Below are positions 2,607 through 63,132 of a stretch of DNA of 64,000 nucleotides, in pieces. How positions within the stretch are numbered: the stretch's first letter is position 1; each line of letters opens with the position of its first letter. A model generated the notes under the pieces. The model searched no databases. It saw only the letters and a program-made list of their open reading frames with translations, and was not told the DNA's origin. The stretch lies in assembly GCA_012646185.1 (NCBI GenBank), contig GCA_012646185.1_4706.1; one strand, given 5' to 3'. Both the position numbers and the translations under genes were made by a program. Source of the stretch: a phage.

Positions 2607-3146
2607 TTACTGTTTGTTCGTGGCTTCACGAATGAAAATAACATCAGGATATTCTTGGGATTCAATGAATTCAGGATTACGATAACGACGAATGTGACGC
2701 ATTGTCGTACAAGCAAGTTTGTAAAGATGTTCCTCCTCACGTTGTGTTAATAACATCAGTTGCGCGTCTGGAATCACGAATGGGAGTCTTTCATTCACGT
2801 ATTCCCGAAGGTCATCGAGATCATCGTGATGAATGCCCTCTGAGAGCTTATATAACGCTTCCAGCAATTCTAATCCACCGAACTGGTAACTTCCTATTGT
2901 CGTCTTAAACAATGCGCCAGAACGCGTGGTGGATGCTCTATCGGCGACATCGTATTGTTCTAACATATATCCGTAGACCATGCTACGTCGATCCAGTGTA
3001 TCCGTAACGAGATTACGCCACCGTTCTAGTCTTTTGAGCGCTTTGTCGATAGAGTAAACGATCATGCCATGTTCATCCAACTCTTCCGCAATACCCAATA
3101 GTTCATTGTTGTTAGGTTTTGCTGCACCGATAAGAAAAACACTCAT
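2607..3146 (-). CDS. hypothetical protein
   Basis: 179-aa ORF; start overlaps the upstream stop as TAATG. Confidence 0.55.
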   Translation of the reverse strand: MSVFLIGAAKPNNNELLGIAEELDEHGMIVYSIDKALKRLERWRNLVTDTLDRRSMVYGYMLEQYDVADRASTTRSGALFKTTIGSYQFGGLELLEALYKLSEGIHHDDLDDLREYVNERLPFVIPDAQLMLLTQREEEHLYKLACTTMRHIRRYRNPEFIESQEYPDVIFIREATNKQ

Positions 3147-3559
3147 TACTCAAACTCCTTATTCCAAAACTCGATTAATGAATCGAGCTGTTCCTTACTG
3201 GTTATCTCACCTCCCCTAACAAAATGAAATCGTTCTTGAATGGCGATCTTTTCAAGGATATCGGTAAGCGAATGACGGTGACAGAAATTTCCTGCAGGAC
3301 AATAACACCCTAACACCACAACCGGATGGGAGAATAAAGCCAGCCACTCCGATGTATGATCAACAAAGCTTTTACGCATAAGCGTGTAGTAGCCTGCGGT
3401 ATATTCATCCTCGGTTAACGTTTTTGATTTGATTCCTGTAACAAGTTCCCATGAAGGTGCGAAGAGCGGGTTACCTGTTTTCACCGTCGTGTCCAGTAGG
3501 AACGCTCGTGTGTCTGAAAGCCAACGATATTTGGCTAATTGAAGGGTGTATAAAAACAC
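3146..3559 (-). CDS. hypothetical protein with CYCPAGNFCHRH Cys/His motif
   Basis: 137-aa ORF with a conserved-looking Cys/His cluster; family not verified. Confidence 0.5.
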   Translation of the reverse strand: MFLYTLQLAKYRWLSDTRAFLLDTTVKTGNPLFAPSWELVTGIKSKTLTEDEYTAGYYTLMRKSFVDHTSEWLALFSHPVVVLGCYCPAGNFCHRHSLTDILEKIAIQERFHFVRGGEITSKEQLDSLIEFWNKEFE

Positions 3560-3662: not shown

Positions 3663-4142
3663 TCAGTCTTTCAGCAGCTCAGCTGCATACGCACTGATGT
3701 TGTCGCGAATATGCTTAACCTGAGTTGTCGGGAAAGATTTCTTATACGCGGTAGTCAGGCGTCCGTAAACCTGTTTCTTCTCGTTAGAGCCGAAACCAAC
3801 TTCAGCGCTACGTTGAACCGTTGCAGACACAACGTCTTTGCCCAGCGGCAGGGTTACAGAAACAACGTCAACCTGTTTGTTATCCGCCATGAACTGCGCG
3901 CCAACGCGGCCAACCGCCAGACCGTGAGCCAGACCGATATCGGTGGTCAGTTTCTGTGCTTTTTCCAGGATTTCTTTTTCTTCCGGCGTTACCAGAGTAC
4001 CCAGGAAATCACTGCCTAACTTCTGGCTACCAGATTCGTCCAGTTTAATACCAGCGGCGATTTTATCAGAAAGAGCCTGAACTTCCGGACGTACGTTAGA
4101 AGTGGTTTCAGTCGCTACGGTGGTTTCTACAGCTTCAGACAT
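3663..4142 (-). CDS. hypothetical acidic protein, likely abundant
   Basis: 159-aa ORF, GGAG RBS, codon usage dominated by preferred codons, downstream of a CTATATTAC promoter motif. Confidence 0.6.
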   Translation of the reverse strand: MSEAVETTVATETTSNVRPEVQALSDKIAAGIKLDESGSQKLGSDFLGTLVTPEEKEILEKAQKLTTDIGLAHGLAVGRVGAQFMADNKQVDVVSVTLPLGKDVVSATVQRSAEVGFGSNEKKQVYGRLTTAYKKSFPTTQVKHIRDNISAYAAELLKD

Positions 4143-4259
4143 GTTAATACTCCAATTAGTTTTTTCGATCGATCAAAAGGATAAAATCAGAAGATTCTTT
4201 CTTCATAGGGAAAACACAAGTCGGTTAAGGTTTACTTCTTAAACTCCTTGCGTTCTATC

Positions 4260-4290
4260 AGTTAGGTAATATAGACCTCAACTTTTTTCC
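4260..4290 (-). promoter_or_regulatory. early-type promoter candidate (CTATATTACC motif)
   Basis: Minus strand reads AAAAAAGTTGAGGTCTATATTACCTAA; same motif at three other sites, all upstream of minus-strand genes. Confidence 0.5.
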
Positions 4291-5078
4291 AATAATGCTG
4301 CAACGTTCCGCGCGAAACGAATTACCTTGTAATTGCGGGTCTGTTTGATATCTTCTTCCCCATCACTGTCACCTTCAGACGGATCTTCCCACATGAAGTC
4401 TTGTTCGTCCGCTTTCTGTAAGTAGCGGTATAACTGCACCATGCTGCGTGCGGTCGGAGAGATAGCGCGAAGCTCATCCAATTCTTCATCCGTGAGCAGA
4501 ACATGCGGTGAACGCAGTGGTTCCATTGTCGTATTACACAACAGACGAATCAGCAGATCGACGCACGGAATAACCGAACCTGGTGAGGCGATTTCTGGGT
4601 GTAATGTATAACCCCAATATACAGTGTTAAAATACGTCAAAACAGCAGGTAGTGACGGATGTTCCATCGCACGGCCAATTTGTTGTCTTACGATAGATGC
4701 ACGATCGTTCAATACATCGAAAGTAATCTGCTGCGGTTCCATAACCGCAAGTGAAATACCGTATGCGTCAGCCACACCCAGGATTTCATGAAGGGCCGAA
4801 CGTTCTTCTTCGGTGGATATTGTCCCGATTGCCTTACGCCCTGCAAGGTCAATCAGCATCGGTGAAACAGCTTCTTTAACCGCATTAAAAGAAGCCTGGT
4901 AAGCGTGTTTGTGAATATACAGCGTCCACGCTAATGCGCGCTCAGCCGCATGAAGCAGATCGACATAAGACAGTTCTTGATGGCATGGGCCATACACACT
5001 CACAGCAAGCTTGGTGGCTTTCTCAGAGGCTTGCATAATAACATCCGGTGATTTAGGCATATCGCGTTCTTCTTGCAT
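4278..5078 (-). CDS. hypothetical protein
   Basis: 266-aa ORF. Confidence 0.55.
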   Translation of the reverse strand: MQEERDMPKSPDVIMQASEKATKLAVSVYGPCHQELSYVDLLHAAERALAWTLYIHKHAYQASFNAVKEAVSPMLIDLAGRKAIGTISTEEERSALHEILGVADAYGISLAVMEPQQITFDVLNDRASIVRQQIGRAMEHPSLPAVLTYFNTVYWGYTLHPEIASPGSVIPCVDLLIRLLCNTTMEPLRSPHVLLTDEELDELRAISPTARSMVQLYRYLQKADEQDFMWEDPSEGDSDGEEDIKQTRNYKVIRFARNVAALLEKS

Positions 5079-5359: not shown

Positions 5360-6169
5360 TTACCAATGATTAAAGCTGCCCGCTTTAACGACGTCACAGC
5401 GCAGATGGTTACGTAACTGATCCAGGAAGACAACCGGACTGTCGCCAGACAACATGGCCAGCGCGTGTTGGCCACCGGAACGAACAACAAGCTCATCAAC
5501 CATTGGTGCTGTAATCGGAAGATCATACGCATCCATGATTGCTTTGGCTTCCTGTTCTACGTCTTTCTGGAACCCTTCCATCGTCGGAGAGTCATATTTG
5601 GTTGCAAACTCGATCCCAGGCAAGTTAACGTAATCGTAAGTCATGACACGGGTCATAACACGACGGCGCTCACGTTGCCAGATCTGAGGATCGGTTAACG
5701 CGCGAACCGAAAAACACACGTTCACCAACGGCGTTTCAAAATCTTTACGTAATGGATCACCGTACGGCCCGCAAGGAATAACATCCCCCATCACCATCAC
5801 GACAGGACGACCACGACGATCACGTCCAGCTTCCTCTAGCCAAATCTTAGAAAAACAATGGCTTACCTTCGTTTCTTCGATTCGTAATGCTCGCTGCAAA
5901 AAGCTGGTTGCATCCTGACCGATCTCTGGTTTAGGGTGACCGTATTCACCTTTCAACGAACGATTGCGTGCGTTTGTTTGCAATAAGCTGTTTTCCAGGA
6001 ACAGCGGTTTCGAACGCTCAAGTTCGTAATATTCTTCGGTATTGTTAAAACAGTTAAATCCGCCTATAACACAGGTGTAGGCACCGTCAGCATTAGGACG
6101 GATAATACCTTTCTTATTCACACCAAGATAACTGGTGCAAACAAGATTACTAATTGGTGGTTGCATCAT
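5360..6169 (-). CDS. hypothetical protein
   Basis: 269-aa ORF. Confidence 0.55.
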   Translation of the reverse strand: MMQPPISNLVCTSYLGVNKKGIIRPNADGAYTCVIGGFNCFNNTEEYYELERSKPLFLENSLLQTNARNRSLKGEYGHPKPEIGQDATSFLQRALRIEETKVSHCFSKIWLEEAGRDRRGRPVVMVMGDVIPCGPYGDPLRKDFETPLVNVCFSVRALTDPQIWQRERRRVMTRVMTYDYVNLPGIEFATKYDSPTMEGFQKDVEQEAKAIMDAYDLPITAPMVDELVVRSGGQHALAMLSGDSPVVFLDQLRNHLRCDVVKAGSFNHW

Positions 6170-6248
6170 AACCCCTTTATAAGCAACTGAATGAAAAAAG
6201 CGTTACATTCCCGCTTTTACGTCAAGAAGGTGACGCGTAAGCGTTATA

Positions 6249-6980
6249 TCACCATTCATACGATCCGGCGCACTGATGCCCCAATAGTACCAACGCGTCG
6301 TCTTTGGCAGCCAGGTATTTTTCTAACGTTATCCGTGAAACAGACACATTAGAGAAATCCATCACACCTAAGCGATGATCGTAATGGTTAATTTGCATCC
6401 GGTAATAACCTTTCTTTACCACCAGAAACTCACCTTGACGCAACCATAGCGGAACGTTATCAACCTCCGCATGGATATAAAACACCGGACATTCTGTCGT
6501 AACGGAGTTTTCCTTCCCATCGCTATCTGTAATCTTCCCTTTGGGGACAGCCGCGATAAAACATTCTCCGATACGCTCGGTTTGGTACCCGTTGGGGTAA
6601 CGCGGATCGTGAAACAACCAATGTTCATCGCTAATATCCACATCGGATAATAACGTACGATGTGGACGTAAGGCGATATCAAACGGAACACGATAGATAA
6701 CGTACCCGCCTAACCAATGGGCTAAGTGACCGCCAGAAAAATACTGCTTGATTGCGGTACTGTAGCCGTATATACAACCCATCAAACTGCTGGACACACA
6801 GATCCTTGGAAACGACCCGTCTTCCATACGCAAGGTACGTTGAGGGATACGCGGCATCATCGTTTTCAGTTCGGTATCGGTGCTAATATGCAATAAACCG
6901 AAAGGAAGCGTTTTGCTCGGCACCCACGCACAACGTTCCATAATCGCTCTTGGGACAATAGTCTCGATAGACGATAACAT
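6249..6980 (-). CDS. hypothetical protein
   Basis: 243-aa ORF, tightly packed with neighbours. Confidence 0.55.
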   Translation of the reverse strand: MLSSIETIVPRAIMERCAWVPSKTLPFGLLHISTDTELKTMMPRIPQRTLRMEDGSFPRICVSSSLMGCIYGYSTAIKQYFSGGHLAHWLGGYVIYRVPFDIALRPHRTLLSDVDISDEHWLFHDPRYPNGYQTERIGECFIAAVPKGKITDSDGKENSVTTECPVFYIHAEVDNVPLWLRQGEFLVVKKGYYRMQINHYDHRLGVMDFSNVSVSRITLEKYLAAKDDALVLLGHQCAGSYEW

Positions 6981-6981
6981 A

Positions 6982-7692
6982 TCACCCCCTCAGAATCGCT
7001 TCTGTTTCGCTGATCGTATCCGCAGGATAAACCAAACTACTATCGATTGCGTTATTCACGTAACCACCCATTAAGTTGGTGATGGTGTTTGTACCGCTAT
7101 CGATAATGTTTCGTAATCCGATGTCGATGGCTTTTAAGGTGCTGCGTTCCTCATCCGAAAGCAAACGCCATGCTCGACGACGATCGTTGGGGTCACGTGT
7201 GGTGATAGACGCCAGAACAGAATAGATGCTGCTATCCGCATTCAATTTAACACCAGCCAATTTCGCTGACGTGTAGAGCAGCTGATATTTTTCTTTTTCG
7301 GTGTACCACCACGGCACTTTACCGAGCGTATAGATCTCGTTATACATCAGCCATGGGAAAGAGTTTCGCATCACGACATCGGTTGACACCAACACCGTGT
7401 CGCCGGGAAGAAACACAAATTCATAAAACGGCTGACCATCCATGGTAATCTCACGGATGTCAGATGGGTCGATATGGAGCTGGGTCAATGCGTGGCTGAC
7501 ACCATACTGACCATCAGGAAGAATAATCGGGCAGCACGCACAAACCCGGTTCTCACTCCCGATGATAGATAAACCCAATCCCTCGTAACGGACGGGTGTC
7601 AGAATCGAACACCCGCCACGAGTAACAACAGATTTATCTTCTTGTATGTCCCAGTCCGCAAGCACCGCAGCACCGTTGCGGACAAGCGCCAT
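6982..7692 (-). CDS. hypothetical protein
   Basis: 236-aa ORF abutting neighbours in an operon-like run. Confidence 0.55.
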   Translation of the reverse strand: MALVRNGAAVLADWDIQEDKSVVTRGGCSILTPVRYEGLGLSIIGSENRVCACCPIILPDGQYGVSHALTQLHIDPSDIREITMDGQPFYEFVFLPGDTVLVSTDVVMRNSFPWLMYNEIYTLGKVPWWYTEKEKYQLLYTSAKLAGVKLNADSSIYSVLASITTRDPNDRRRAWRLLSDEERSTLKAIDIGLRNIIDSGTNTITNLMGGYVNNAIDSSLVYPADTISETEAILRG

Positions 7693-9216
7693 TTACACCT
7701 CGCTAATCTGGATAACGTAAAGCTGCTGGGCCACGTAATCGGTGGTCAGATGCATCGTTGCGATGGTTGCTGCTTCGAATACCGTGAGTTCAGGACGTTC
7801 ACGCATAATCAAATCGATCTCATCGATGAGACGGTTAACGCCTTGAGCGTCTTCGTGATGCATGGTTTTCACGTACAGCGTACGGAAATACTGCTGGAAG
7901 TTAGCTACGTCGGTATCGGTAAGGGTAGCAACTTCACCACGCACAATTTCCATGACCTTCTTACGGGCATCTTCATCGAGGTCCACCGTAATCAGGTCAG
8001 CAAATACACCCTGCAACGCCAACGCGTATGCACGTAAGCGGTTTGCGGCTTGCTGGCTGGCTTTCATGTTAATGTAGTTACGGTAATGCTGCATGAAGCC
8101 CGCACCGTTAGCCAACAGTTCATCTTTACTGATGAGTTCACGTTCTAACAGGACAGCTGCGGTCAGTGCTTCCGGCGAACCACCTTCTTGCAGATAACCC
8201 ATGTAGACGTCTGCGTTAACGAAAATCGTCATCGTTGACGCGTCTTCAGCACGTTGAATCTGAGAAGCCGACGGTGCAGAAAGAATCAGCTCACCACGCT
8301 CCATACGCAGGATACGATCACGACCGACGCGGGCCATCCCGTTGATCGCCGCAGCACGAGCTTGTTGCATTTTAGCGCGGTAGTTTTCAAGCATCATGTC
8401 GTTGCCGTCCTGGATATCTTCCAGCAGGTTAACGGCCCACATATAGCAGAGGAATGCAGGAGTTGCCGCCGCGCGGGAACCGTGGAATGCAACGTTATCG
8501 CTATCCGGATATGTAATCAGATAAGCGGTGTTGTTCGAAGAAGGAGCGGAACCACGGAAGAAATAGTTGTAGATGTCTTCCAGTGCCTGATCGCTCATCC
8601 CTTCCGTTGCTTGCTGTACAAAACGATCCAGGTTTTCATTACCGGTATACAGCAACGTACGCAGCTTATCACCGGTGATAAACGCAAGCTTTCCGGTTGG
8701 AGTGAAATCGTTATTAATCGAAATCAAGCCATTGAGGTCATAATCGCTAACTAAGGCCTGGTACTCTTCGGAGTTATAAAACTCAGGATAGTAACTCAGA
8801 CTTACTGTCGGGATCAGTTTCGGTGCCAGGATGATCGAATCGATACGTTTTTCCAGTTCCGGGTACAGCGCACGGCATTTCGGCAGGATGGTATTACGCG
8901 CCAACTCTTTGGCATACACCACTTTTTCCACCACGTCTTGAACTGCGGTCTGTAAAACTTCATCGTGGATATAAACCTCGCGTTCGCTGGCAGGTGCTAC
9001 AGCGCCATCTTCGGTTTCATCAAGTGTTTCAGCAACAACCACACGTTCAGCACTAAGCTGTACCAACGCATCCGCGTCTTCCGGTGGCTGGTTCCAGTGC
9101 ATGGTTTCACAAACCGCGGCTAACGGAGTACCTGGAATCGCAGCGACGATTTGGTTACGTTTGATAAACCCTTCGACAATAGGCTCAACAGCATAAACGG
9201 TTTTATTGGTGATCAT
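7693..9216 (-). CDS. hypothetical protein
   Basis: 507-aa ORF in the same tightly coupled run. Confidence 0.6.
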   Translation of the reverse strand: MITNKTVYAVEPIVEGFIKRNQIVAAIPGTPLAAVCETMHWNQPPEDADALVQLSAERVVVAETLDETEDGAVAPASEREVYIHDEVLQTAVQDVVEKVVYAKELARNTILPKCRALYPELEKRIDSIILAPKLIPTVSLSYYPEFYNSEEYQALVSDYDLNGLISINNDFTPTGKLAFITGDKLRTLLYTGNENLDRFVQQATEGMSDQALEDIYNYFFRGSAPSSNNTAYLITYPDSDNVAFHGSRAAATPAFLCYMWAVNLLEDIQDGNDMMLENYRAKMQQARAAAINGMARVGRDRILRMERGELILSAPSASQIQRAEDASTMTIFVNADVYMGYLQEGGSPEALTAAVLLERELISKDELLANGAGFMQHYRNYINMKASQQAANRLRAYALALQGVFADLITVDLDEDARKKVMEIVRGEVATLTDTDVANFQQYFRTLYVKTMHHEDAQGVNRLIDEIDLIMRERPELTVFEAATIATMHLTTDYVAQQLYVIQISEV

Positions 9217-9449
9217 TACTGCGCTCCCTCCAACGCATTACTACCTACGGGTTCTTTGGTTTCCAGACGGCTGTTTAAGCGCGCAGCAACCGCATCTTCC
9301 AATCCCAACGGCATAACCTTTTTGTTCACGTCAGGATCGGCGGCATCATTACCAACGGTTTGACGTACGACCTCAGCAACCAACGTTACCGCGTTCGTCA
9401 GCGCAACAAAGCTCGCTGCCCGAGCCGTGTTAAGTTGTTCTTGGTTCAT
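9216..9449 (-). CDS. small hypothetical protein
   Basis: 77-aa ORF whose stop overlaps the start of the 507-aa gene by 1 nt. Confidence 0.4.
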   Translation of the reverse strand: MNQEQLNTARAASFVALTNAVTLVAEVVRQTVGNDAADPDVNKKVMPLGLEDAVAARLNSRLETKEPVGSNALEGAQ

Positions 9450-9480
9450 TCACTTTTCCTTTTAATGTCAGAGCATCGCA

Positions 9481-9500
9481 TTCTTGACGTACGTCAAGAA
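9481..9500. promoter_or_regulatory. perfect 20-bp palindrome TTCTTGACGTACGTCAAGAA, candidate operator
   Basis: Read directly; a related half-site TACGTCAAGAAGG occurs at 6218-6230, also upstream of a minus-strand gene. Confidence 0.4.
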
Positions 9501-9524
9501 GGTACTGCGTTCAGCGAAATAAAC

Positions 9525-9550
9525 GAGCAGGGGCATGAAGCCCCCTGCTC
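9525..9550 (-). terminator. intrinsic terminator hairpin
   Basis: 9-bp stem gagcagggg/cccctgctc immediately after the stop of the 9551..13897 gene, followed by a U-rich tract on the minus strand. Confidence 0.5.
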
Positions 9551-12500
9551 TTATTTGGCGTCGTTAAAATAAATATCAACAGCTCGTTCCGTTGCGTAGA
9601 GGAGACCAAGATTCACAGTCCCAACCACTTCCGGTGAACCGATGATACGGTTAGCGATACTGGTGCCACTGAAGATAGCATCAAGGGTGTGCCCGTCTTC
9701 GGTTTTGTTCACACCATGACCCACGGAAGAGACAACGGATTTCGCTTGAGCTGCGAAGGTACCTTTATCACCCATCCCCGCACCAAGGTCGTAACGCATG
9801 AAAATACGGATAGCGATCTGGTTCTCGCCTAACGGATTACCGTCTATTCTCACGTTACTGTTATTGATACGCCCCGTAGTTGCTTCGTTGAGTTTCAGTT
9901 CCTTAACGCGTTTAGCTCGTGCTTTATCTGCCTCACCGACGAGCGCTGCCATGGTTTCACTCATATCCTCAATCTGAGCGCGGTACAGTACATCGATCTG
10001 TACAACTTCACCATGAACGTCAGCACGTGGGTTATACTGACTCATACGACGTAATGCTTCAACGGCTTCCTGACTCTCATCACTCAGATCGGTCGCAATC
10101 GGTTCTTCCAGTGTTGCAAGGATCGTTCGTGGTTCAACATGATCGCCGATTTTCACGAGACCACGAATGTTGAGATGGGCGTCAACGATGAGCGTACGGC
10201 TCTTAATCGATGGTGTTACGAGACGATCAGCAAGATTGTCGAAGATATACGAACTGTCCTCGTGAGTCTCTGGAATATCCAGAATACCGACAAGAGACAG
10301 AACACCTGCGCGCCAAACAACCTGACCTGGGTTCCACCAATCGCGTTTAAAATAAAGACGATGGAAAACCACCACATCCTGATCCTTAACGCGATCCCCG
10401 ACTTTATAATCGGTAATGAGATCGTGAGGATAATACTTACCTGGTCCTTTCCCGATTATCGTACCGAGCTGGAAAACCTCTTCCCCTAACTCTGGATCGT
10501 CGTATTGTATCGTAAGCGCAGTTTTGGTGACCTTCTTAACAACACCATCGCCTTGGGCAGCTGCTGCAAAGAGCTTACCAACACGATGCGCGATGACAGT
10601 CTCACCGCCTGTGCGCCATGGTTGTACATCGTAACCTTCAGCAGCAATCATGCGGTTGTGTTGGATCCCGACGAAGACCAGACGTTTTCCATCATCACGG
10701 TCTACAGCCGGAACAGCTAACGCTGACGTACTCATTACCGATGAGATGCCGTCTGTCTTTTCATCGAATGGTCGTGTTTCACCATACACCGACACGATAT
10801 TAGCATTAGGTGCAAGGTAAGCAGAGATACCCACATCCCCACTATCTTTCGTACCCTCTGACACAATACCAACATCGGACTTGTCGTATTCACGATCGCG
10901 TGCGCGTCGAAGCGATGTCTTTGAACGACCCCCGATACCGGTCATCGTTGCTTCTTCACCCTGCTTGATATCCAGCATCGGGTTGGTTTCATCGATCACG
11001 ATGGACGCGCTGTCGTCGAGAATTTGGTTCCAGACGCTTACCGGACTGATTGAGATTTTCTGACGATTTCCTTGACTGCTGTTCTCATTCTGACGAATAG
11101 CGCCAACCAGATCCTTATACACCAATTCAGCGAACTTATCGTACGTTTTAAAACGTTGATAGTTCACATCGTTGGTGTTAGGTGCCCAGTCATCCAGAAG
11201 CAGTTCAACAGCACGCAGTAACAACATGGCGAAATCGGTAGGTTCTCCCATGTTCTGTAGCAACGTACGGCTTACCGGATCAACGAAAAGACGCTCCATG
11301 AGTTCAAGTTCGCGTAAATGACGAACCTTAAGTCCGGCACCATCGACAACGTTAAAATAGATATCTCGATTGTCGAAAGCACCGCGAGCGTAACCGATGT
11401 AGTTACGGTACTCGTTAAATCCGCCCAGCAACAACGTCGTCATGCGATCGTCTTTACTGAAGATCAAACTTTCGTCATCAAAGCTCACCGCGAATTCATC
11501 GGGCGCTAGACCCATACGAGAACCGCGAGGTACCGTACGATAGTTCGCTTTAAGATGTTCTAATAACGGGGTAAGTCCACCCAGATAACTTAGAACAACA
11601 CCAACCGGAATACGTACACCCATGAATTCAAGATCGGCGGCTTCGATCGGCATCTTAGCCGCATTGATACCGAAGAAATCGGGGAACGTCCCTACAGGTG
11701 TTGGTGTTTGTCCTGACTGACAGATATAGAGCTGATTGCGTTTATCGATTGCTAAGAATTCACCCAGCGTGTTACGCGCAAACGTCAGGAGCCCTTCGGC
11801 TAACTGTTCGTTGAACCGATCTTCCCCGATGAACTCCGGCAATGTCTTTGTATCAAGACGTATATCCCAATCAGCAAATTGGATTTGGGTATAGTTGCGT
11901 GCAAGCACAGCGAAGTAATACGGGACTTTGACGGCCGGATCAAAGACGTTACCACGTTTTAACGTGGTTAAGGGCGAAGACTTATCGTAATACATCGCTG
12001 TAAGTTGGCGTGTTAGCCAACGACCGGCGTTATTAACGACACGCTCTGAACGTTTAACAAACACCTTACCGTAGGCGGTACTCAACGCAACTTCGGATGA
12101 TGATACCTTTCTAATAGGTTTATCAACACGTTGTTTACGCATCCGGTATTTGATGCCGTTAACAACATAAATGCCGTCCTTACGAACCTTCGGCAACATC
12201 ACCGGGAACGTGGTTGGGACACCGCCTACAGGAGCCAGTTTAATCGTGATGACTTGATAATCCCCCATCACGTCAACAACATCTTCAACTTTATATCCCG
12301 TGACAGGGTAACCTGCCTGTTGTACGGCAACAACAGCGGCTGCGATGTCCTTTTGCATCACGTGTTCAACGTAATGTTTATCCCACACCGCAAGCGTCGA
12401 TTTACATAGGCTCTTATCGACGATAACATCCGCTTCCGGCATAACCTTTGCTGGCGCTAATTTCGCGGCTTTTGGTTTAACTTCAACATACTCAGCAAGT

Positions 12501-13897
12501 GTTAATCCAGAACCGTCGGGTGCTTCGATTTCGTGAATGGCGTCAGCATTACGCATCGCTGCTTTATATTGGACGCCGCTTAACTGACCCGCATCAGCCA
12601 GATCGCTCGCGCGTACCAACACCGCATCCGATAACGACTGAATATATTCACCGTGTGTTTTCGGTAGCGTTGCTGCGTCAAAGACATCAACCTTTTCTTC
12701 TTCGGTATCGTCGGTAACGACTTCGAAGAGATCGTCGGTAATGTCCTGATCTTCATCGGGTTGGAAATCTGGTTGTACTTCTACCCCGGGTACTTCACGG
12801 ACATCTTCGAACGAGCGTTCTACAATGGCGTTCCACGCATCAGCGTCATCGTCTTCATCCGACCCGCCGACCAACTCCGCTTCTAACTCATCGGGATCAA
12901 GAACGGTAGCCAGATCCTCACCGTTAGGAAGCACGACGTCGCGATCATCATACTCCGCATCCGGGCTGTCTGCAAGAATATCTCGCTCTTGACGAAGAAC
13001 CTGTTCCTCTTCTTGTTTCTGTTCTTCTTCATTCGCACTCTGCGACCACAAACGTGTTACCGCCATCATCCAACGACGCTGGAAGGTTTCAAGTGTCGTT
13101 TTATCGAGTTCTTCCCCTTCCTTAACAAGCCCGGTACGCCATTCCTCCAGCAGGCCCAGATTCAGCGTAAAGAAGTACACACCGTCCGTAAATACAACGT
13201 TAAGCTTATCCAGCGTGGCTCTGTCTAACGAAGCCATCGTACTGTTCTCACGATCGGTTCCCAACCAGCGGAAGAAGTCAAAGAACGACAGCTCCTCCGG
13301 CGTAGCGAAATTCATGAGGTTGTTACGGGTCGGTGCCTGTTGCGTGGTACGCATCAACGAAATCTTCGGCAATGTTGACGGTATACGGAACAACAGAAAG
13401 TGTTGACGATCGCTTTGCTGTGCGATTTCGTTGGCTTTCGACCAAATTGTTTTACGTACGTTGAACCATTCATCATACCAACGGGTGAGCGTTGGACGAT
13501 AAATGTACATGTGGTTAAGATGCGCGTAGTTAGCCACGATCTGAGCGTTGATGTTTTTCTCCACCGTACTTAGATCAGTGACCAAACGAAAACGACGATG
13601 CGATGCACGGTAATCCAGTTTCGCACGCGGTAGCTGGAATCGCTGATCCCGTCGAGGTGCGCCTTGCTTGGTTGCAAGGTCATCCGCGAACGATATCCAA
13701 AGCTGGGCACTTTCTTTGCTCAGCATGTATTCGTTTTCTGGAGGACCTATCAATGATGGATCCGTTGCGGTGTAATGATAGACAGCATAACGCGGCAGCT
13801 GCAATAGCTGCACTAAACGTAATCTCGGTGACAATAGCTCTTGGTAGCGTCTGACACCGAACTGTCGGTAGTAATCAAGGTATTTAAGTTTTGCCAT
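9551..13897 (-). CDS. multisubunit RNA polymerase beta-prime-like subunit, C-terminal part
   Basis: 1448-aa ORF with ATG and GGAG RBS; contains a bridge-helix-like NNAGRWLTRQL (compare E. coli ANSGYLTRRL) and a possible trigger-loop-like TMTGIGG; follows the DFDGD exon. Highly diverged. Confidence 0.5.
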   Translation of the reverse strand: MAKLKYLDYYRQFGVRRYQELLSPRLRLVQLLQLPRYAVYHYTATDPSLIGPPENEYMLSKESAQLWISFADDLATKQGAPRRDQRFQLPRAKLDYRASHRRFRLVTDLSTVEKNINAQIVANYAHLNHMYIYRPTLTRWYDEWFNVRKTIWSKANEIAQQSDRQHFLLFRIPSTLPKISLMRTTQQAPTRNNLMNFATPEELSFFDFFRWLGTDRENSTMASLDRATLDKLNVVFTDGVYFFTLNLGLLEEWRTGLVKEGEELDKTTLETFQRRWMMAVTRLWSQSANEEEQKQEEEQVLRQERDILADSPDAEYDDRDVVLPNGEDLATVLDPDELEAELVGGSDEDDDADAWNAIVERSFEDVREVPGVEVQPDFQPDEDQDITDDLFEVVTDDTEEEKVDVFDAATLPKTHGEYIQSLSDAVLVRASDLADAGQLSGVQYKAAMRNADAIHEIEAPDGSGLTLAEYVEVKPKAAKLAPAKVMPEADVIVDKSLCKSTLAVWDKHYVEHVMQKDIAAAVVAVQQAGYPVTGYKVEDVVDVMGDYQVITIKLAPVGGVPTTFPVMLPKVRKDGIYVVNGIKYRMRKQRVDKPIRKVSSSEVALSTAYGKVFVKRSERVVNNAGRWLTRQLTAMYYDKSSPLTTLKRGNVFDPAVKVPYYFAVLARNYTQIQFADWDIRLDTKTLPEFIGEDRFNEQLAEGLLTFARNTLGEFLAIDKRNQLYICQSGQTPTPVGTFPDFFGINAAKMPIEAADLEFMGVRIPVGVVLSYLGGLTPLLEHLKANYRTVPRGSRMGLAPDEFAVSFDDESLIFSKDDRMTTLLLGGFNEYRNYIGYARGAFDNRDIYFNVVDGAGLKVRHLRELELMERLFVDPVSRTLLQNMGEPTDFAMLLLRAVELLLDDWAPNTNDVNYQRFKTYDKFAELVYKDLVGAIRQNENSSQGNRQKISISPVSVWNQILDDSASIVIDETNPMLDIKQGEEATMTGIGGRSKTSLRRARDREYDKSDVGIVSEGTKDSGDVGISAYLAPNANIVSVYGETRPFDEKTDGISSVMSTSALAVPAVDRDDGKRLVFVGIQHNRMIAAEGYDVQPWRTGGETVIAHRVGKLFAAAAQGDGVVKKVTKTALTIQYDDPELGEEVFQLGTIIGKGPGKYYPHDLITDYKVGDRVKDQDVVVFHRLYFKRDWWNPGQVVWRAGVLSLVGILDIPETHEDSSYIFDNLADRLVTPSIKSRTLIVDAHLNIRGLVKIGDHVEPRTILATLEEPIATDLSDESQEAVEALRRMSQYNPRADVHGEVVQIDVLYRAQIEDMSETMAALVGEADKARAKRVKELKLNEATTGRINNSNVRIDGNPLGENQIAIRIFMRYDLGAGMGDKGTFAAQAKSVVSSVGHGVNKTEDGHTLDAIFSGTSIANRIIGSPEVVGTVNLGLLYATERAVDIYFNDAK

Positions 13898-13900
13898 GGG

Positions 13901-14101
13901 TTAGGCTCCACGAGGTCCCGTTAAGTTGCGTAACAGGAACGCAACTGTATCGTAACCAATATCAATGTTGAATTTATTTTTACCGCTTACCCAGAAAGCA
14001 CGCTTCTTGTGTGAGTTGGTAATTTCGTCAATAGCTTCCATGGAATAAAGAACGTTAACCGAGACCGTATCACCGTCGAACCTTGTCTTCGCCTCAGGTC
14101 G
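13901..14101 (-). CDS. RNA polymerase beta-prime-like N-terminal subunit, exon 2 (catalytic DFDGD-type motif)
   Basis: Open frame encodes RPEAKTRFDGDTVSVNVLYSMEAIDEI...NIDIGYDTVAFLL, matching the beta-prime NADFDGDQMAVHVPLSLEA...QDVVLGLYY region; bounded upstream by in-frame UAG inside the intron core; stop UAA lies 2 codons before the ATG of the next gene. 5' boundary approximate. Confidence 0.6.
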   Translation of the reverse strand, partial: RPEAKTRFDGDTVSVNVLYSMEAIDEITNSHKKRAFWVSGKNKFNIDIGYDTVAFLLRNLTGPRGA

Positions 14102-16060
14102 CTACGCTGAGACCGCCTGCATGGATACGTACATCACAGGCTGCTTGCACTTTCATGCAAGAGGAGACTATATCAAACCGGCAGCGCAACCTGCTACGGT
14201 AACCTACACTTCGAAGACGCTCGTCCTCTACAGGGTGGTAAATCCCTTAGTCGTTGAACCTGCGTTGTTTCACATTCTTGTTTGTAAGAATGTCGTATTA
14301 CTACGCAACAACCAGGCTGCTGATTGCCCATTGTTTCGCACCTTAGCACCGCTTACGCGGCTTTTCTTTCAGCCTAAGCCTCTTACGGAGGTAGTGCATC
14401 TCAACTGTTGTTTCTGCCTTTCGGCACCTCATGGGTCGTTGAGCTTTAGGGGTTCCCAGCATTTCGTAGGTTTTTCAAGCACTCCCTTTCGGGAATACCG
14501 GACTCATTATTAGCTTATTTATTCAAGTATCTGAAATCCCACTTATCTTTACGTCGTTTATCGCACTTGATGTCAGGATGATTAACACGATGCCTAATAG
14601 TTGTTGCCGATAGCTGGCTGAGATTCTCAGCAGATCGTGCGCCAAGAACAACGAGTTTTGTGTCGTCTGGACGCGTAACTTCTACTGCCCGATAATGCTT
14701 ACGTAACACATCACGCCAATATTCACGACGTTCTGGTTCAGCATACTCAAGCATGTAACCGTTAACATCTACTAAACCGTAGCTTTCGTTTAATCGAGAG
14801 GTAGCGGCTGGTTTACTAATACCGATTGCTTTAGCCGCATCGACCACGGTTTTATACGGGGTCTCATTACCGTCTCTATCTACAACCACAATGAAATCTG
14901 GACGTGAATCGAGTAGCTGCTGTCTGCGTTCGACGGCTTGTTGATGAAGCACCATGTTAACGTGTTCGAACCCGTAACCTTCTGGACCGTGCCACCCTGG
15001 ATTGTTATTCGCTCGATAAAGTACCGTCGCAGATTTCACTCCAGTCTGACGTGACGCCTCGTTTGCACTATGAACAACCGTGGTAGAGCCGTCAGGGTGA
15101 TATATCCGTATCTGGTTCATTATACCGGAACCAATGAAGTTACCATCAGCTGATTTAATATCCGGCCATGGTTGAGGATCATCTTTGAATTTAACCACCC
15201 AGCGGTTATTAAACAGTTTGACTTTTCGAACATGTTTGCCCATTGTCGTATCCGTAACACCTGCGACTACTGATGCCTGTGTGATACTCAGGTACTCAGT
15301 AACGGTATCGTTCCATGTATCCCAAAGCAGAACCGGTTTATTGTCGTCGCGTAAACCGTATTCGATGGCGTGTAGAACGTTACGACTTCTGGTCGCCCAT
15401 TCAAGATTATCGAGAGAGTAATTCCATTTGTCGGCATCGAGATGATTAACGTCCAACTTATCGACATTAGCCGGATATTCCCGCCACGCCAACATCAAGC
15501 AGCGATGCAGAACCTTAGTTCTCGTTACATCCCGACAATCATGACGTAGACTAATGAATACGTAATTATCCTTTTTCGGATACGATCTACATTCCTGACC
15601 GTCTTTGCGGCGAATAACTCGTCCTTTCTCATTTATCAGATAACGGGTGTGTCCAGGAATGACACGATAACCAGGGTACTTAGCGATTTCGTAAGCAGGC
15701 TCGAACCGATAGGATAAATTATCAACATCCCAGTTAGATTCGTCACCATCAACAAACATCGCTTTGACGTACTTCTGTGTTTCAATATCAACCAGGATGT
15801 TTTTGTGTGCGATACAAATCAATGCTGGGATATTGAATTCACGACCGGCTAAGATAACCATGTCGCCATTTCTCGGTATCACGACGTGGGTATCACGATA
15901 CCGTAAATTTCCATAGCCGTCTATTTCAATCCAGCTTAGAAACGGAATGGATATAAACTCTTTTTCAGATACTCGCCATTTAAACATCTTAATACCTATT
16001 TAATACTAAACATCATATTAATAGGTTTAAAAGTTAAAAATGACAGAAAATGGCTAAATT
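14102..16060 (-). mobile_element. group I self-splicing intron carrying an HNH homing endonuclease gene
   Basis: Canonical P, Q, R, S core elements in correct order on the minus strand: P ~14366-14381 (GGCUGAAA), Q ~14312-14326 (AAUCAGCAGCC), R ~14244-14259 (GUUCAACGACUAAGGG), S ~14163-14176 (UUGAUAUAGUC); P4 and P7 pairings are complementary. 5' splice site not resolved. Confidence 0.7.
14515..15987 (-). CDS. HNH homing endonuclease (intron-encoded)
   Basis: 490-aa ORF with HNH-type motif DVNHLDADKWNYSLDNLEWATRSRNVLHA, a NUMOD4-like N-terminal segment and three helix-turn-helix-like repeats in the C-terminal half. Confidence 0.8.
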   Translation of the reverse strand: MFKWRVSEKEFISIPFLSWIEIDGYGNLRYRDTHVVIPRNGDMVILAGREFNIPALICIAHKNILVDIETQKYVKAMFVDGDESNWDVDNLSYRFEPAYEIAKYPGYRVIPGHTRYLINEKGRVIRRKDGQECRSYPKKDNYVFISLRHDCRDVTRTKVLHRCLMLAWREYPANVDKLDVNHLDADKWNYSLDNLEWATRSRNVLHAIEYGLRDDNKPVLLWDTWNDTVTEYLSITQASVVAGVTDTTMGKHVRKVKLFNNRWVVKFKDDPQPWPDIKSADGNFIGSGIMNQIRIYHPDGSTTVVHSANEASRQTGVKSATVLYRANNNPGWHGPEGYGFEHVNMVLHQQAVERRQQLLDSRPDFIVVVDRDGNETPYKTVVDAAKAIGISKPAATSRLNESYGLVDVNGYMLEYAEPERREYWRDVLRKHYRAVEVTRPDDTKLVVLGARSAENLSQLSATTIRHRVNHPDIKCDKRRKDKWDFRYLNK

Positions 16061-27838: not shown

Positions 27839-28351
27839 TTAAACTTCTTCGTTTTCCGAACCTAACGATTCAGCATCTGGATCATCAACGGGAATGGTTG
27901 CGTCAAAATACCGCTTCGTATGCGTGGTTGTATAACCTACGCTATCTGTGATGGAAATCGTAAACGTGACTTCCCTTGCACGGATTAAGCGTAGTTTATT
28001 CATGAAGTTACGGAACGGCATCGATCCCCGATTCAACTCCTTAATGACGTTTCCTCGAATACTGGAAATGTCTTTATTCGTTTTATCAGGGTGTCGTTTC
28101 TTCACATCACGCATATGTCGGGTAATATACGAATTGAGCTGATTTGCGCCGATCCCTCTCTCCGTATAAATCTGCAACAGGAACTCCGTAAGGAAATCCT
28201 GTCTACCCGTAGGCGTCCAGAAATTGTTACCGTGATGGTAGTTAGTCGCTCGTCCTCGATTGCTTTGAGGATTTTCATCATCGCTCTCATCACGACGCTT
28301 AAGCGGATTAATGCGTGCGCGGAAAGAGACTTCATTATATTTATTTGTCAT
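27839..28351 (-). CDS. hypothetical protein
   Basis: Start reassigned to ATG at 28351, which forms an ATGA overlap with the upstream stop. Confidence 0.55.
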   Translation of the reverse strand: MTNKYNEVSFRARINPLKRRDESDDENPQSNRGRATNYHHGNNFWTPTGRQDFLTEFLLQIYTERGIGANQLNSYITRHMRDVKKRHPDKTNKDISSIRGNVIKELNRGSMPFRNFMNKLRLIRAREVTFTISITDSVGYTTTHTKRYFDATIPVDDPDAESLGSENEEV

Positions 28352-28944: not shown

Positions 28945-28985
28945 CATCATGAAGGTAATATAGTCCTGTTATTTTTTTCAATACG
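28945..28985 (-). promoter_or_regulatory. early-type promoter candidate (CTATATTACC motif)
   Basis: Minus strand reads GAAAAAAATAACAGGACTATATTACCTTCA. Confidence 0.5.
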
Positions 28986-29626: not shown

Positions 29627-30317
29627 AATAACTGAACCATTTTATTCCAAAGAACCGCATGAACATCACAGGTGCGTTAGAAAGTTCGATTGCTTCGTAA
29701 AGTTTGTCATAAGCCAGATCGGAATCAGGGATGGTTTCACTGATTCGTCTGGCTACAACCAATACGTTACAAATCGGATTGTCTTCTAACAGCATCTGAT
29801 TGGGGAGGTGCCAGCGTTTGAAATCGTAAAAGAACATCGCATTATACGTCTTACGGATTTCTGACGGATGCAGTGTGGCCGGATGACGGTAAATAACCTC
29901 AACGCTATCTTGCGCGCCGAGGTATTGCTGGATGCCTTCTTTTAACGCAATTGCAGCATCTCCCACAAATTCAAACGGGTACGTATTCACATGAACCGAA
30001 AAATCCGGTGCAGCAATCCCTGTCAAGCGGTCTTTCATGTAGTCCGCTACCACGTAACATAATCGCCACATCAACTCCGTCGGAATGCATTTATCGAGAA
30101 TGGTTTCATCGATATTTGCCAACGCACCCTTAAACTCTTCGTAAGTGTAAGTAACACCCGCCTGCTTCTCCGGCTCCAGGTTATAGGGTCGGTAATGCCA
30201 TTTCTTCCCCCACTTTCTGATAGCCTCCGGATCCAACGTTGTTGCTACCGCCATTTCGATATCAAGCAGCGCCTCGAGTTCTACGTACACCGTCACTAAC
30301 GCCGCATTTCCAGTCAT
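29529..30317 (-). CDS. hypothetical protein
   Basis: 262-aa ORF; its 3' end overlaps the convergent 28997..29626 gene by 98 nt. Confidence 0.5.
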   Translation of the reverse strand: MTGNAALVTVYVELEALLDIEMAVATTLDPEAIRKWGKKWHYRPYNLEPEKQAGVTYTYEEFKGALANIDETILDKCIPTELMWRLCYVVADYMKDRLTGIAAPDFSVHVNTYPFEFVGDAAIALKEGIQQYLGAQDSVEVIYRHPATLHPSEIRKTYNAMFFYDFKRWHLPNQMLLEDNPICNVLVVARRISETIPDSDLAYDKLYEAIELSNAPVMFMRFFGIKWFSYFIPPRVTPPKTDDLQPSSEIPPHEPTPSVEPF

Positions 30318-42067: not shown

Positions 42068-42100
42068 ACTTAAGTAATATAGCCGTGAAAAATGTTGGAT
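42068..42100 (-). promoter_or_regulatory. early-type promoter candidate (CTATATTAC motif)
   Basis: Minus strand reads CATTTTTCACGGCTATATTACTTAAG. Confidence 0.5.
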
Positions 42101-45568: not shown

Positions 45569-46183
45569 CTAACGGCGTTTCGTACCGACCTTCCCATTTC
45601 GATGGTCATCAAGAATACGCCATTCTTCGAACAGGAGTTCAGCAGCGAAATAACCTACAGCGATGCTGTCTATCGCATGCTCATCAAGATTCGCTAACAC
45701 AACACCATTCCTGGGTGTGATGTTCATGAGGTTCAATACTTTCTGGCGAACATCGTCCTTACCAACACGGGACGTCATGATCCCAACGGCGCGTTTTGCG
45801 CTTCGGTTATCAACCCCTAAGAAAGACACCGTAGGGTCAAAATCGATAACCGTTGTCTGAATCGCTGAAAACAGCTCGCTGAGCGCCATACCGCTTTGCT
45901 TGAAACGACCGATGAATGGCGTCTCACAAGCGACCGCTTGCGGCTGGTACTCTTGCAATAACGTTGTCAGCGAACGACGGTGTTCTTGGATACGTGCGGC
46001 ACGATTACCGTATCCAAGCGCAATATCGCCATCGGGATCATATCGACGTGAAGCGTGCCATGTCCCTGCATACAGCAGTTCAATATCTTCGACACGCACG
46101 TCCAAACGTAGTAACGACGCACCGAGTGTATCGGTGCCAGGGTCGATTGCCAGAATATCGTAAGCGTATTCTGGTGGGATCAT
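45569..46183 (-). CDS. RuvC-like Holliday junction resolvase candidate
   Basis: Start reassigned to ATG at 46183 (ATGA overlap with upstream stop); N-terminal YDILAIDPGTDTLGASLL resembles the RuvC catalytic ILGIDPG segment. Confidence 0.45.
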   Translation of the reverse strand: MIPPEYAYDILAIDPGTDTLGASLLRLDVRVEDIELLYAGTWHASRRYDPDGDIALGYGNRAARIQEHRRSLTTLLQEYQPQAVACETPFIGRFKQSGMALSELFSAIQTTVIDFDPTVSFLGVDNRSAKRAVGIMTSRVGKDDVRQKVLNLMNITPRNGVVLANLDEHAIDSIAVGYFAAELLFEEWRILDDHRNGKVGTKRR

Positions 46184-53407: not shown

Positions 53408-53707
53408 TTAAGGTTTAGGTTCCGTTTTGTATTGTGCGAGTAATGTGTTGATCTGCTCCCGTTGTTCTTTTAAGTATGCGGGAAGCTGGTCTTCCCGTAC
53501 CGTTCCGATTTCCAACGTGATGTACCAGCGTTGTTCGGAAGCCTGCCATTGAAAACTGCTCTGTAGCCGTAGGATGCTAGGATCACGTACCTTGCTTGCA
53601 CTGTAGTGATCGAACCAATCCAGGTATTCTGCTTTCCCTTCCTCATCGGCAACGTAACGCTGCACGCTGTTCTTCCCTTTGTTTTCGTATCCCGTTGCAC
53701 GTATCAT
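53408..53707 (-). CDS. hypothetical small protein
   Basis: Start reassigned to ATG at 53707, forming an ATGA overlap with the upstream stop. Confidence 0.45.
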   Translation of the reverse strand: MIRATGYENKGKNSVQRYVADEEGKAEYLDWFDHYSASKVRDPSILRLQSSFQWQASEQRWYITLEIGTVREDQLPAYLKEQREQINTLLAQYKTEPKP

Positions 53708-54486
53708 GCGAACGTTTCTCCTGTAATGTGTTGCGGATGGCGTAGCATGGTAGCATCCCATTGTACGATCCGGCTCCGGCTTACCAGCATCATGACGGAT
53801 TCATCGTCAAGCCCTGGCTGCGCAACCGGCAACCAACGTTCGTTAAGCACCTTCGCTTCAACACGTTTCTTGCGGGGATTGTAGCGCACTTCGCTAACCC
53901 AAGCGAATCCAAGTGGATGCACAACCCGTGGATAATACATGCGAAGCAATTGATGCATCCGATCCGTTGCCTCCAGATTGCAATCCACCATGTAAGGTTT
54001 CACCATGGTAAGCTTTTTGGTGTAATACGTTCCAACGGTATGGTTACGCCAACTTGGCAAGGCATGATCCCCTTCTCTCAGTTTGCTATCCGAGTTCATC
54101 GGCCAGACCTGCTGTTTACCGGCCAGCATCGCGTACTGCCGATCAACGCAACGAACCTGATCGGCGAACAATGGATCCAGAACATCATCCACCGCACCCT
54201 TATTGCGATAACCGTGATGTACCACCAACCTGCTTGCGCTCATCGATGCGGGATGCTGGCTCTTATGCGCATACAGCCCACCGTCACCGCGAGGGTCGTA
54301 AAGATAGCCGCATGCGCCACGCCATATCACCTTGCCTACGGTTCTCTCGTTTTCAAGCAGCATCGTCGGCCCATCAAGCAAATTGGTGAACCACTGCACC
54401 TTCACGCATTCCGCTTGGACATGCTCAGGTAATGCCTGATACTCTTTTTGGGTGTATAAGGTATCAAAAATGATTTCATCGTTCAT
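53704..54486 (-). CDS. hypothetical protein
   Basis: 260-aa ORF with GAGGAA RBS; first gene after the promoter motif at 54577. Confidence 0.55.
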   Translation of the reverse strand: MNDEIIFDTLYTQKEYQALPEHVQAECVKVQWFTNLLDGPTMLLENERTVGKVIWRGACGYLYDPRGDGGLYAHKSQHPASMSASRLVVHHGYRNKGAVDDVLDPLFADQVRCVDRQYAMLAGKQQVWPMNSDSKLREGDHALPSWRNHTVGTYYTKKLTMVKPYMVDCNLEATDRMHQLLRMYYPRVVHPLGFAWVSEVRYNPRKKRVEAKVLNERWLPVAQPGLDDESVMMLVSRSRIVQWDATMLRHPQHITGETFA

Positions 54487-54569: not shown

Positions 54570-54610
54570 CACTAAGGTAATATAGTCGTGAAAGGATTTG
54601 TGTTACAGAA
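54570..54610 (-). promoter_or_regulatory. early-type promoter candidate (CTATATTACC motif)
   Basis: Minus strand reads AATCCTTTCACGACTATATTACCTTAG. Confidence 0.5.
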
Positions 54611-62646: not shown

Positions 62647-63132
62647 TTAAATAGGCGAGTCAGGAAGCTGTCCGTCGTCGATTTCAACGGTGCCGATCTT
62701 ACGTGTTGCCGCGAGGTGCACGGTACCCTGAATTTTGTTCCATGTCCCGATACGCATCACGTTTCTGTAATTACTGTTGCTATCTGTTAACGTGTAGGCG
62801 AAACCGCTATCGGTGACAGCAAGATAAACCCAGCCAACAGATTCACTTACACCAGACACATCCAACGTCGTTGCAGGAACAACACCCTCTTTGGTATTGT
62901 ATTCGGCAACACCTTCCGACAAACTTATTCTTCCGTTGTTGTAAGAACCAGACGGTACGATACGATCGCGACTGAAAAAAAGAAAGGGAAGGTAACGCTG
63001 GGTAACAAGCGGTGCAAGTTTAGGAGCCACTTCGGTCTTAACGTAGACATTTGTTTGTGCTGGCGTTACCTCGTGAGGGTTCTTTTGGGTGAGATACGCT
63101 CCCCATTCAGAAAGCAATGTTGATAGCTTCAT
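62647..63132 (-). CDS. small tail-fibre-related protein
   Basis: N-terminal KNPHEVTPAQTNVY shares the NPH-VT-AQ motif of the fibre repeats. Confidence 0.45.
   Translation of the reverse strand: MKLSTLLSEWGAYLTQKNPHEVTPAQTNVYVKTEVAPKLAPLVTQRYLPFLFFSRDRIVPSGSYNNGRISLSEGVAEYNTKEGVVPATTLDVSGVSESVGWVYLAVTDSGFAYTLTDSNSNYRNVMRIGTWNKIQGTVHLAATRKIGTVEIDDGQLPDSPI

Follow-up and report, generated by a model that had tools for sequence, protein, structure and literature searches.

Among the textbook traits of prokaryotic and phage operons are stop-start overlaps (ATGA, TAATG) and genes that abut each other. The closest described systems include the gene pairs for which termination-reinitiation has been measured in Escherichia coli (Huber et al. 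2019, PMC6728339; 2023, PMC10666635). Reinitiation there is efficient at overlaps and at very short gaps and collapses at a gap of about 20 nucleotides (nt), and subunits of heteromeric complexes are over-represented among overlapping E. coli pairs (PMC10666635). Here we compare with these systems a run of four minus-strand genes, positions 6249-9449 of a 64,000-nt phage contig (GCA_012646185.1_4706.1; "the window" below is the whole of this stretch). By BLAST, region 6100-9700 is 97.6% identical at the nucleotide level, over its whole length, to Escherichia phage vB_EcoM_Goslar, a 237-kb nucleus-forming jumbo phage (chimallivirus; NC_048170.1), and the four genes are orthologues of Goslar HOV27_gp208-gp211 (NC_048170.1, 203922-207122), with identical boundaries; we call them gp208 to gp211. 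They follow each other at spacings of -1, 0 and +1 nt. The initial annotation of the window, made from its letters alone, had described them as abutting or overlapping by 1-2 nt; the coordinates given there are exact, but there is no 2-nt overlap. The packing is genuine, yet commonplace among phage operons. The operon is already annotated identically in the published Goslar genome, its junctions fall within the described class, and there is nothing new in the observation as such.

There is good support for the start codons of the four genes. Every one of them is the first ATG, GTG or TTG past the in-frame upstream stop. The three downstream starts are preceded by Shine-Dalgarno (SD) sequences (Table 1) whose pairing with the anti-SD amounts to -9.8, -7.7 and -12.5 kcal/mol at junctions 1, 2 and 3, respectively, while all in-frame alternatives are at -6.4 or weaker; among random coding positions, these SDs rank within the top 0.4%, 1.8% and 0.1%. 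The refuting condition named in the initial annotation, a better in-frame start that would remove an overlap, was looked for in the four genes and not found, the chosen SDs being the strongest. Homologues from other genera begin at positions that align with the N-termini of gp209, gp210 and gp211, and the 'MI...' N-terminus of gp209 is kept in 10 genera. Two peptides from Goslar virions, AVEPIVEGFIK and AVEPIVEGFIKR, correspond to residues 9-19 and 9-20 of gp209 (Table S4 of the preprint 10.64898/2026.04.21.720040); the next in-frame start of gp209 is codon 39, so that these peptides are obtainable only from the overlapping ATG.

Gene models for the window were obtained by transferring the Goslar RefSeq annotation by BLAST, which gave 58 genes with intact frames; gp206 was added by hand, making 59. 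In the four-gene run, the sizes of the open reading frames (ORFs; 77, 507, 236 and 243 amino acids), the junction sequences and the upstream terminator are all identical in Goslar and in the window, whereas the queried region holds about 86 substitutions (2.4% of 3,601 nt). Within the four genes 84 codons differ, 79 synonymously and 5 non-synonymously, with nearly all changes at third positions; gp209 accounts for 41 synonymous and 5 non-synonymous differences, and gp210 for 13 and 0. Judged by these codon counts, the four genes are under purifying selection.

The reading we prefer, with moderate confidence, is that the run would form a compact late transcription unit, in which the output of partner proteins is matched by termination-reinitiation, loading of free ribosomes being also allowed. 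The four genes would be read as one late polycistronic mRNA: they lie on the same strand, and the 0-1 nt between them leave no room for an internal promoter or terminator, the only terminator-like hairpin returned by a sequence scan being upstream of the run. A ribosome that has finished one gene would stand at most 1 nt from the start of the next, behind an SD located in the upstream coding sequence, and could re-initiate there; free ribosomes may load at the same junction SDs. The likeness to the measured E. coli pairs extends to several traits. The stop and start overlap or are separated by a very short gap (-1, 0 and +1), at all three junctions the upstream gene carries an SD of the bacterial type within its 3' end, the best-conserved pair consists of predicted heteromeric partners, and the host is E. 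coli, in which the distance dependence was measured. The differences are that coupling was measured in those pairs and is predicted from sequence here, that the mRNA in question comes from a phage nucleus, and that one junction joins very unequal proteins. The initial annotation had stated that the geometry indicates translational coupling; the geometry does permit reinitiation, but "indicates" is too strong a word, given the independent SDs, the copy numbers and the phiKZ data discussed below.

Two pairs of genes come into consideration. The products of gp208 and gp209, a predicted heterodimer with a few hundred copies of each protein per capsid, would have their output matched; gp210 and gp211, each with a few copies per capsid, may be the second such pair. 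The abutment of gp209 and gp210 in this lineage is probably plain genome compaction. Where a junction is tight across the family, the two proteins are matched in their virion abundance, and at the usually loose one they differ about 33-fold, which favours coupling from gp208 to gp209. Translational coupling in the run is predicted to be plausible, and most so at this first junction; a functional coupling of gp211 to gp210 is possibly also present.

This distribution of tight and loose junctions was seen in a survey of 16 annotated genomes, from jumbo phages of different genera, and of 5 metagenomic contigs, in which a junction was called tight at a spacing of at most +3 nt. The gene order common to these genomes and contigs is a subunit of the virion RNA polymerase (vRNAP), a small ORF, a protein of about 500 amino acids, a protein of about 240 amino acids, an optional gp211-like gene, and a protease. 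Pfam, PHROG and tblastn homology, together with gene order, place the run in the chimallivirus block phiKZ gp178-gp177-gp176-gp175, the order of which matches that of the window; the concept of Chimalliviridae core blocks is due to Prichard et al. 2023 (PMC10299810). A gp211-like gene stands between the gp176-like gene and the protease in the Goslar lineage, Eowyn, RAY, PhiEaH1 and 2050HW (as two ORFs in the latter), whereas phiKZ, EL, OBP, RP12 and SPN3US-like phages are without it at that position. The junction of the small gene with the gp177-like gene is tight in 18 of 21 lineages, in the forms TAATG, ATGA, 0, +1, +3 and longer overlaps; that of the gp176-like with the gp211-like gene is tight in 9 of 11. 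Between the gp177-like and gp176-like genes tight spacing is seen in 6 of 20 lineages, mostly giving way to +9 to +20, and between the gp211-like gene and the protease in none of 10. Thus, the conservation of the overlaps in related genomes, which the initial annotation had proposed to check, does not extend to exact spacing, but gp208-gp209 and gp210-gp211 stay tight, while gp209-gp210 is usually loose. In one relative, with a gp211 homologue that is 46% identical, the 1-nt gap is kept with other bases, TAA-C-ATG as against TGA-T-ATG. The SD at junction 3 is made of the rare codons AGG-GGG, which code for the conserved C-terminal ...LRG of gp210 (AGG makes up 3.0% of Arg codons and GGG 14.9% of Gly codons in the window). 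In the window and in six other lineages, the Arg of the C-terminal ...LR that is conserved in the gp176-like protein has an AGG codon, before the stop, and this coding of ...LR provides the SD for the next gene. A single-protein scan of IMG/VR returned only near-identical Goslar-like contigs; the loci sampled in all came from the 16 annotated genomes and from 6 metagenomic contigs.

Several relatives deserve comment in their own right. In PhiPA3, a small gp208-like ORF (MQKLSSNVAHGQN...) is present but unannotated at positions 940-1182 of the surveyed segment. In SPLA1a (3971-4699), the annotated gp176-like gene begins at an internal start, although an ORF of 242 amino acids that opens with GTG agrees with the family alignment. 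The gp211 homologue of Serratia phage 2050HW (4717-5431) is found in two ORFs, of 105 and 110 amino acids, which match the family in its N-terminal and its C-terminal part, respectively; a frameshift, a pseudogene or a sequencing error are possible causes. In another Goslar-like contig, from Logan (SRR28368703, 1-5430), the gp207-like gene is interrupted by a 403-amino-acid ORF with a faint NUMOD1 match, which suggests a homing endonuclease; the polymerase pieces are 1069+ and 375 amino acids long, and the four-gene run downstream is unaltered.

Close junctions also occur elsewhere in the window. The ATGA overlaps listed in the initial annotation at 28348-28351, 46180-46183 and 53704-53707 are all present, and correspond to the Goslar 4-nt overlaps gp200/201, gp011/010 and gp021/020; two further overlaps had been missed, ATGA at 30314-30317 (gp197/198) and TAATG at 3144-3148 (gp215/216). 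The proposal that overlaps support the reassigned start codons holds for the four-gene run, by first start, best SD, homologues and peptide, but gives a mixed picture at the three ATGA sites. The gp010 start is supported by an SD of -5.8, compared with +0.1 for the upstream ATG, and that of gp020 is mildly supported (-7.4 versus -5.8, with AGGAG and ATGA kept amid 6 nearby substitutions), while the ATGA start of gp201 at 28351 has an SD of -2.8 versus -3.8 for an upstream in-frame TTG at 28396. A comparison of synonymous and non-synonymous changes in the upstream extensions at these three sites was uninformative, with two of the regions identical to Goslar and the third varying in both frames. 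Altogether, 9 of the 43 same-strand junctions in the window are at 1 nt or less, namely at spacings of -4 (n=4), -1 (n=2), 0 (n=1) and +1 (n=2), and all six overlaps belong to the -4 or -1 class, as is usual in prokaryotes (PMC6728339, PMC10666635).

Pure genome compaction, in which each cistron is translated from its own SD and the proximity of stop and start has no regulatory role, is a possible explanation of the run, although we would not call it probable, and much of what weighs against coupling speaks in its favour. All three downstream starts carry a strong SD of their own, so that independent initiation is possible at every junction. As many as 23 of the 43 same-strand junctions in the window do not exceed 21 nt. 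Three successive junctions of at most 1 nt were reached in 14% of permutations (P = 0.14), which is not significant; the run is therefore unexceptional for this genome, though each junction is a real gene boundary and not the end of a chance ORF. Spacing drifts from -11 to +20 nt among the relatives. The abutting gp209 and gp210 are about 33-fold apart in their virion copies, virion content being, however, not the same as synthesis rate, and in phiKZ antisense knock-down was cistron-specific, a block of one cistron leaving the downstream cistron expressed (PMC12571901). The mean unpaired probability at the starts of tight junctions is 0.41, versus 0.47 at other starts (P = 0.05), a marginal difference that we do not use as evidence. 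Finally, the starts in the surveyed relatives are those deposited or called automatically, by gene callers that lean towards short overlaps, and phylogenetically the lineages are not independent of each other. What compaction explains poorly is that the junctions between proteins of matched abundance are tight in most lineages and the others are not, since uniform compaction would not lead one to expect this. The confinement of overlaps to the -4 and -1 classes and the efficient re-initiation of E. coli ribosomes at such junctions (PMC10666635) likewise tell against it.

The two other explanations that we considered concern the junctions themselves. An annotation artefact, whereby a preference for the longest ORF or for a short overlap would have hidden true starts located downstream, is very improbable: gene callers do reward short same-strand overlaps, and the separate ATGA site at 28351 has the weak SD mentioned above, but the next in-frame candidates in the four-gene run come 9-38 codons further downstream, with SDs that are far weaker, the homologues align to the chosen N-termini, the peptide at residues 9-20 of gp209 excludes the next candidate, and gp208 is covered to 94.8% by mass spectrometry. 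Recoding, with a frame shift at TAATG producing a gp208-gp209 fusion as in some phage tail-chaperone genes, has the geometry for it, a small ORF directly overlapping a large one, and is hardly credible otherwise. There is no slippery heptamer at GCGCAGTAATGATC, gp208 and gp209 were quantified separately at similar molar amounts, and relatives switch the form of the overlap among TAATG, ATGA, 0 and +1 to +11 nt, which a conserved frameshift would not permit.

Table 1. Genes, junctions and flanking elements of the four-gene run, listed in the direction of the minus strand (SD, Shine-Dalgarno sequence; aa, amino acids)
Feature	Coordinates	Strand	Details
Upstream neighbour, vRNAP subunit	9551..13897	-	1448 aa; Goslar gp207 and phiKZ gp178 orthologue; synteny
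Terminator-like hairpin	9525..9550	-	GAGCAGGGGGCTTCATGCCCCTGCTC then GTTTATTT, just past the stop of the gp207-like gene; 9-bp stem, 7 GC pairs
Palindrome	9479..9502	-	Motif ACCTTCTTGACGTA within a perfect 20-nt palindrome TTCTTGACGTACGTCAAGAA, ~40 nt upstream of gp208
gp208 orthologue (gene 1)	9216..9449	-	77 aa; SD AAGGA 7 nt upstream
Junction 1, gp208/gp209	9214..9231	-	SD GGAGGGAG (9231-9224) inside the gp208 coding sequence, identical in Goslar; stop TAA 9218-9216, start ATG 9216-9214; last A shared (TAATG), 1-nt overlap
gp209 orthologue (gene 2)	7693..9216	-	507 aa; phiKZ gp177 orthologue; PHROG 3841, E 2.7e-43
Junction 2, gp209/gp210	7690..7701	-	SD GAGGTG (7701-7696), TAA 7695-7693, ATG 7692-7690; spacing 0
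gp210 orthologue (gene 3)	6982..7692	-	236 aa; phiKZ gp176 / SPN3US gp244 orthologue; PHROG 2926, E 3.7e-56
Junction 3, gp210/gp211	6978..6991	-	SD GAGGGGG (6991-6985), TGA 6984-6982, T 6981, ATG 6980-6978; 1-nt gap
gp211 orthologue (gene 4)	6249..6980	-	243 aa; low-copy virion-associated protein
3' boundary	6190..6230	-	Second CCTTCTTGACGTA (6230-6218), then weak hairpin and T-run (AAAAGCGGGAATGTAACGCTTTTTT); identical in Goslar
Downstream neighbour, head maturation (prohead) protease	5360..6169	-	Peptidase_S80, PF20034, E 1.3e-78; PHROG 3014; phiKZ gp175 orthologue

Sequence searches of Pfam and PDB returned nothing meaningful for gp208-gp211, and no solved structure of gp210 was found by sequence. 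Positional small-gene homologues of gp208 occur in 15 phage genomes, and gp209 has tblastn matches in 33 jumbo-phage records. In the Goslar virion, gp208 is present at about 256-604 copies (mid estimate 384) and gp209 at about 185-437 (mid estimate 278); of the virion proteins that the atomic model does not include, they belong to the most abundant. Fused to green fluorescent protein they are packaged without being injected, and a gp208-gp209 heterodimer is predicted by AlphaFold 3 (10.64898/2026.04.21.720040). The phiKZ orthologue of gp209, gp177, is a cleaved, injected head protein (PMC10449902).

The third protein, gp210, has tblastn matches in 275 phage records and is 21-34% identical to its homologues over the full length; in two relatives the labels agree with this assignment, PhiPA3 gene 206 being annotated as similar to phiKZ gp176 and Eowyn gp188 being labelled ORF176. 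Genetics and proteomics have identified phiKZ gp176 / SPN3US gp244 as the missing C-terminal part of vRNAP beta-prime, and SPN3US gp244 is lost alongside other vRNAP subunits in a gp241 mutant (PMC5105663). The gp176-type protein is listed as a vRNAP subunit in phiKZ (PMC7618050) and in Goslar (10.64898/2026.04.21.720040). By homology gp210 is the vRNAP beta-prime C-terminal subunit, its physical membership in vRNAP being taken from this literature. It is found at about 6-13 copies per Goslar virion (mid estimate 8.4), and the mid estimates are 4.9 for gp211, 159 for the protease gp212 and 13.6 for the vRNAP protein gp207 (10.64898/2026.04.21.720040).

A profile search places gp211 in a large jumbo-phage family of 627 representative clusters, which includes proteins of 400-1000 amino acids with the domain at the C-terminus, some of them with a SUKH-1 domain and some encoded on contigs of about 250 kb; a look-up of the clusters gave no named members. 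In 130 members of the family, H31 (99%), R59, E119 (100%) and W121 are conserved at 99-100%, and S33, R48, E53, D54, Y73 (85%) and Y96 (89%) at 85-97%. The set of conserved residues looks like an active site. A possible origin of gp211 as a diverged duplicate of gp210 was ruled out by hhalign, with a probability of 0.2%.

An AlphaFold 2 model of gp211 built from 11 sequences has a predicted local distance difference test score (pLDDT) of 76.5 and a predicted template modelling score of 0.78 (an earlier model from 3 sequences, with pLDDT 44, was unusable), and agrees with independent BFVD models of homologues at a template modelling score of 0.7, all of these being uncharacterised jumbo-phage proteins. 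A fold search with the model returned mostly proteins of the ADP-ribosyltransferase (ART) fold, with a weak signal. Foldseek against PDB gave nothing significant; 11 family members had no Pfam match at E <= 10 beyond unrelated single matches; the gp211 profile had no match in PDB, and no sequence-profile match to a known ART family was found. We put forward the hypothesis that gp211 may be an ART-like enzyme packaged at a copy number similar to that of the polymerase. The T4 protein Alt is a virion-packaged ADP-ribosyltransferase, and gp211 resembles it in being a low-copy virion protein and in the prevalence of the ART fold in its fold search. An extension of this idea would have two conserved coupled pairs of physical partners, the abundant gp208-gp209 heterodimer inside the capsid and gp210-gp211, with gp211 as an unrecognised ART-fold enzyme (H31 / Y / E119) that sits in the capsid and, as infection begins, would act on targets of the host or of the phage; in this complete form we regard it as unlikely.

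The strong hairpin upstream of the run, which forms the 5' limit of the four-gene unit, is annotated as a terminator in Goslar, where its sequence is identical. The palindrome that follows contains the motif ACCTTCTTGACGTA, of which the window has 2 exact copies and 1 copy with one mismatch; with up to 2 mismatches there are 7 matches, versus 1.47 expected. Goslar differs at this place by one mismatch (ACGTATGT), which breaks the palindrome and creates a TATG that is gone in the window. The sequence CCTTCTTGACGTA has exactly 2 minus-strand copies, located about 40-50 nt upstream of the starts of gp208 and of the protease gene; the copy before gp208 belongs to the palindrome. It is possible that the palindrome motif is a regulatory or promoter element. 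The 3' boundary element sits in the 82-nt gap before the protease gene, and its hairpin was missed by the terminator scan because the loop is longer than 8 nt.

Such phages transcribe with their own polymerases. A scan for sigma-70 promoters showed no enrichment, with 5 found and 6.8 expected. The sequence CTATATTAC, which resembles the phiKZ early-promoter core TATATTAC, occurs four times on the minus strand (4266-4274, 28955-28963, 42074-42082 and 54577-54585; 0.36 expected). All four copies are intergenic and lie upstream of the minus-strand genes gp214, gp200, gp004 and gp021; these sites are likely early (vRNAP) promoters.

Several further observations concern other parts of the window. 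A group I intron (Rfam RF00028, 56.3 bits) is found on the minus strand at 14144-14530, after the gp206-like ORF (14515-15987). At about 13900-14100, on the same strand, an unannotated open segment encodes ...FDGDTVSVNVLYSMEA...NLTGPRGA*, ends 3 nt before the gp207 ATG at 13897, and aligns with the C-terminus of the Eowyn RNA polymerase subunit gp184 (ADFDGDTGSVTAVYSPEA...NITGH*). On the basis of the intron and the gp184-like segment, we read gp206 as, in all probability, the first exon of a spliced gene of the vRNAP beta-prime type, the exon with the catalytic motif being absent from the Goslar annotation. Divergence from Goslar is uneven, with most genes 96-99% identical; the gp021-like gene (53704-54486, minus strand) aligns partially, at 92.9%, and has a fast-changing C-terminal tail, and the gp027-like gene (62647-63132, minus strand) is 80.7% identical.

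The practical worth of these results is quality control: the start codons of the four-gene run can be trusted. In chimalliviruses mRNA is made inside a protein "nucleus" and is translated only after export, so that coupling at the level of the ribosome would be one of a small number of means by which partner proteins could be made in matching amounts. The lead on gp211 may be relevant to the earliest minutes of infection, which are shaped by packaged enzymes.

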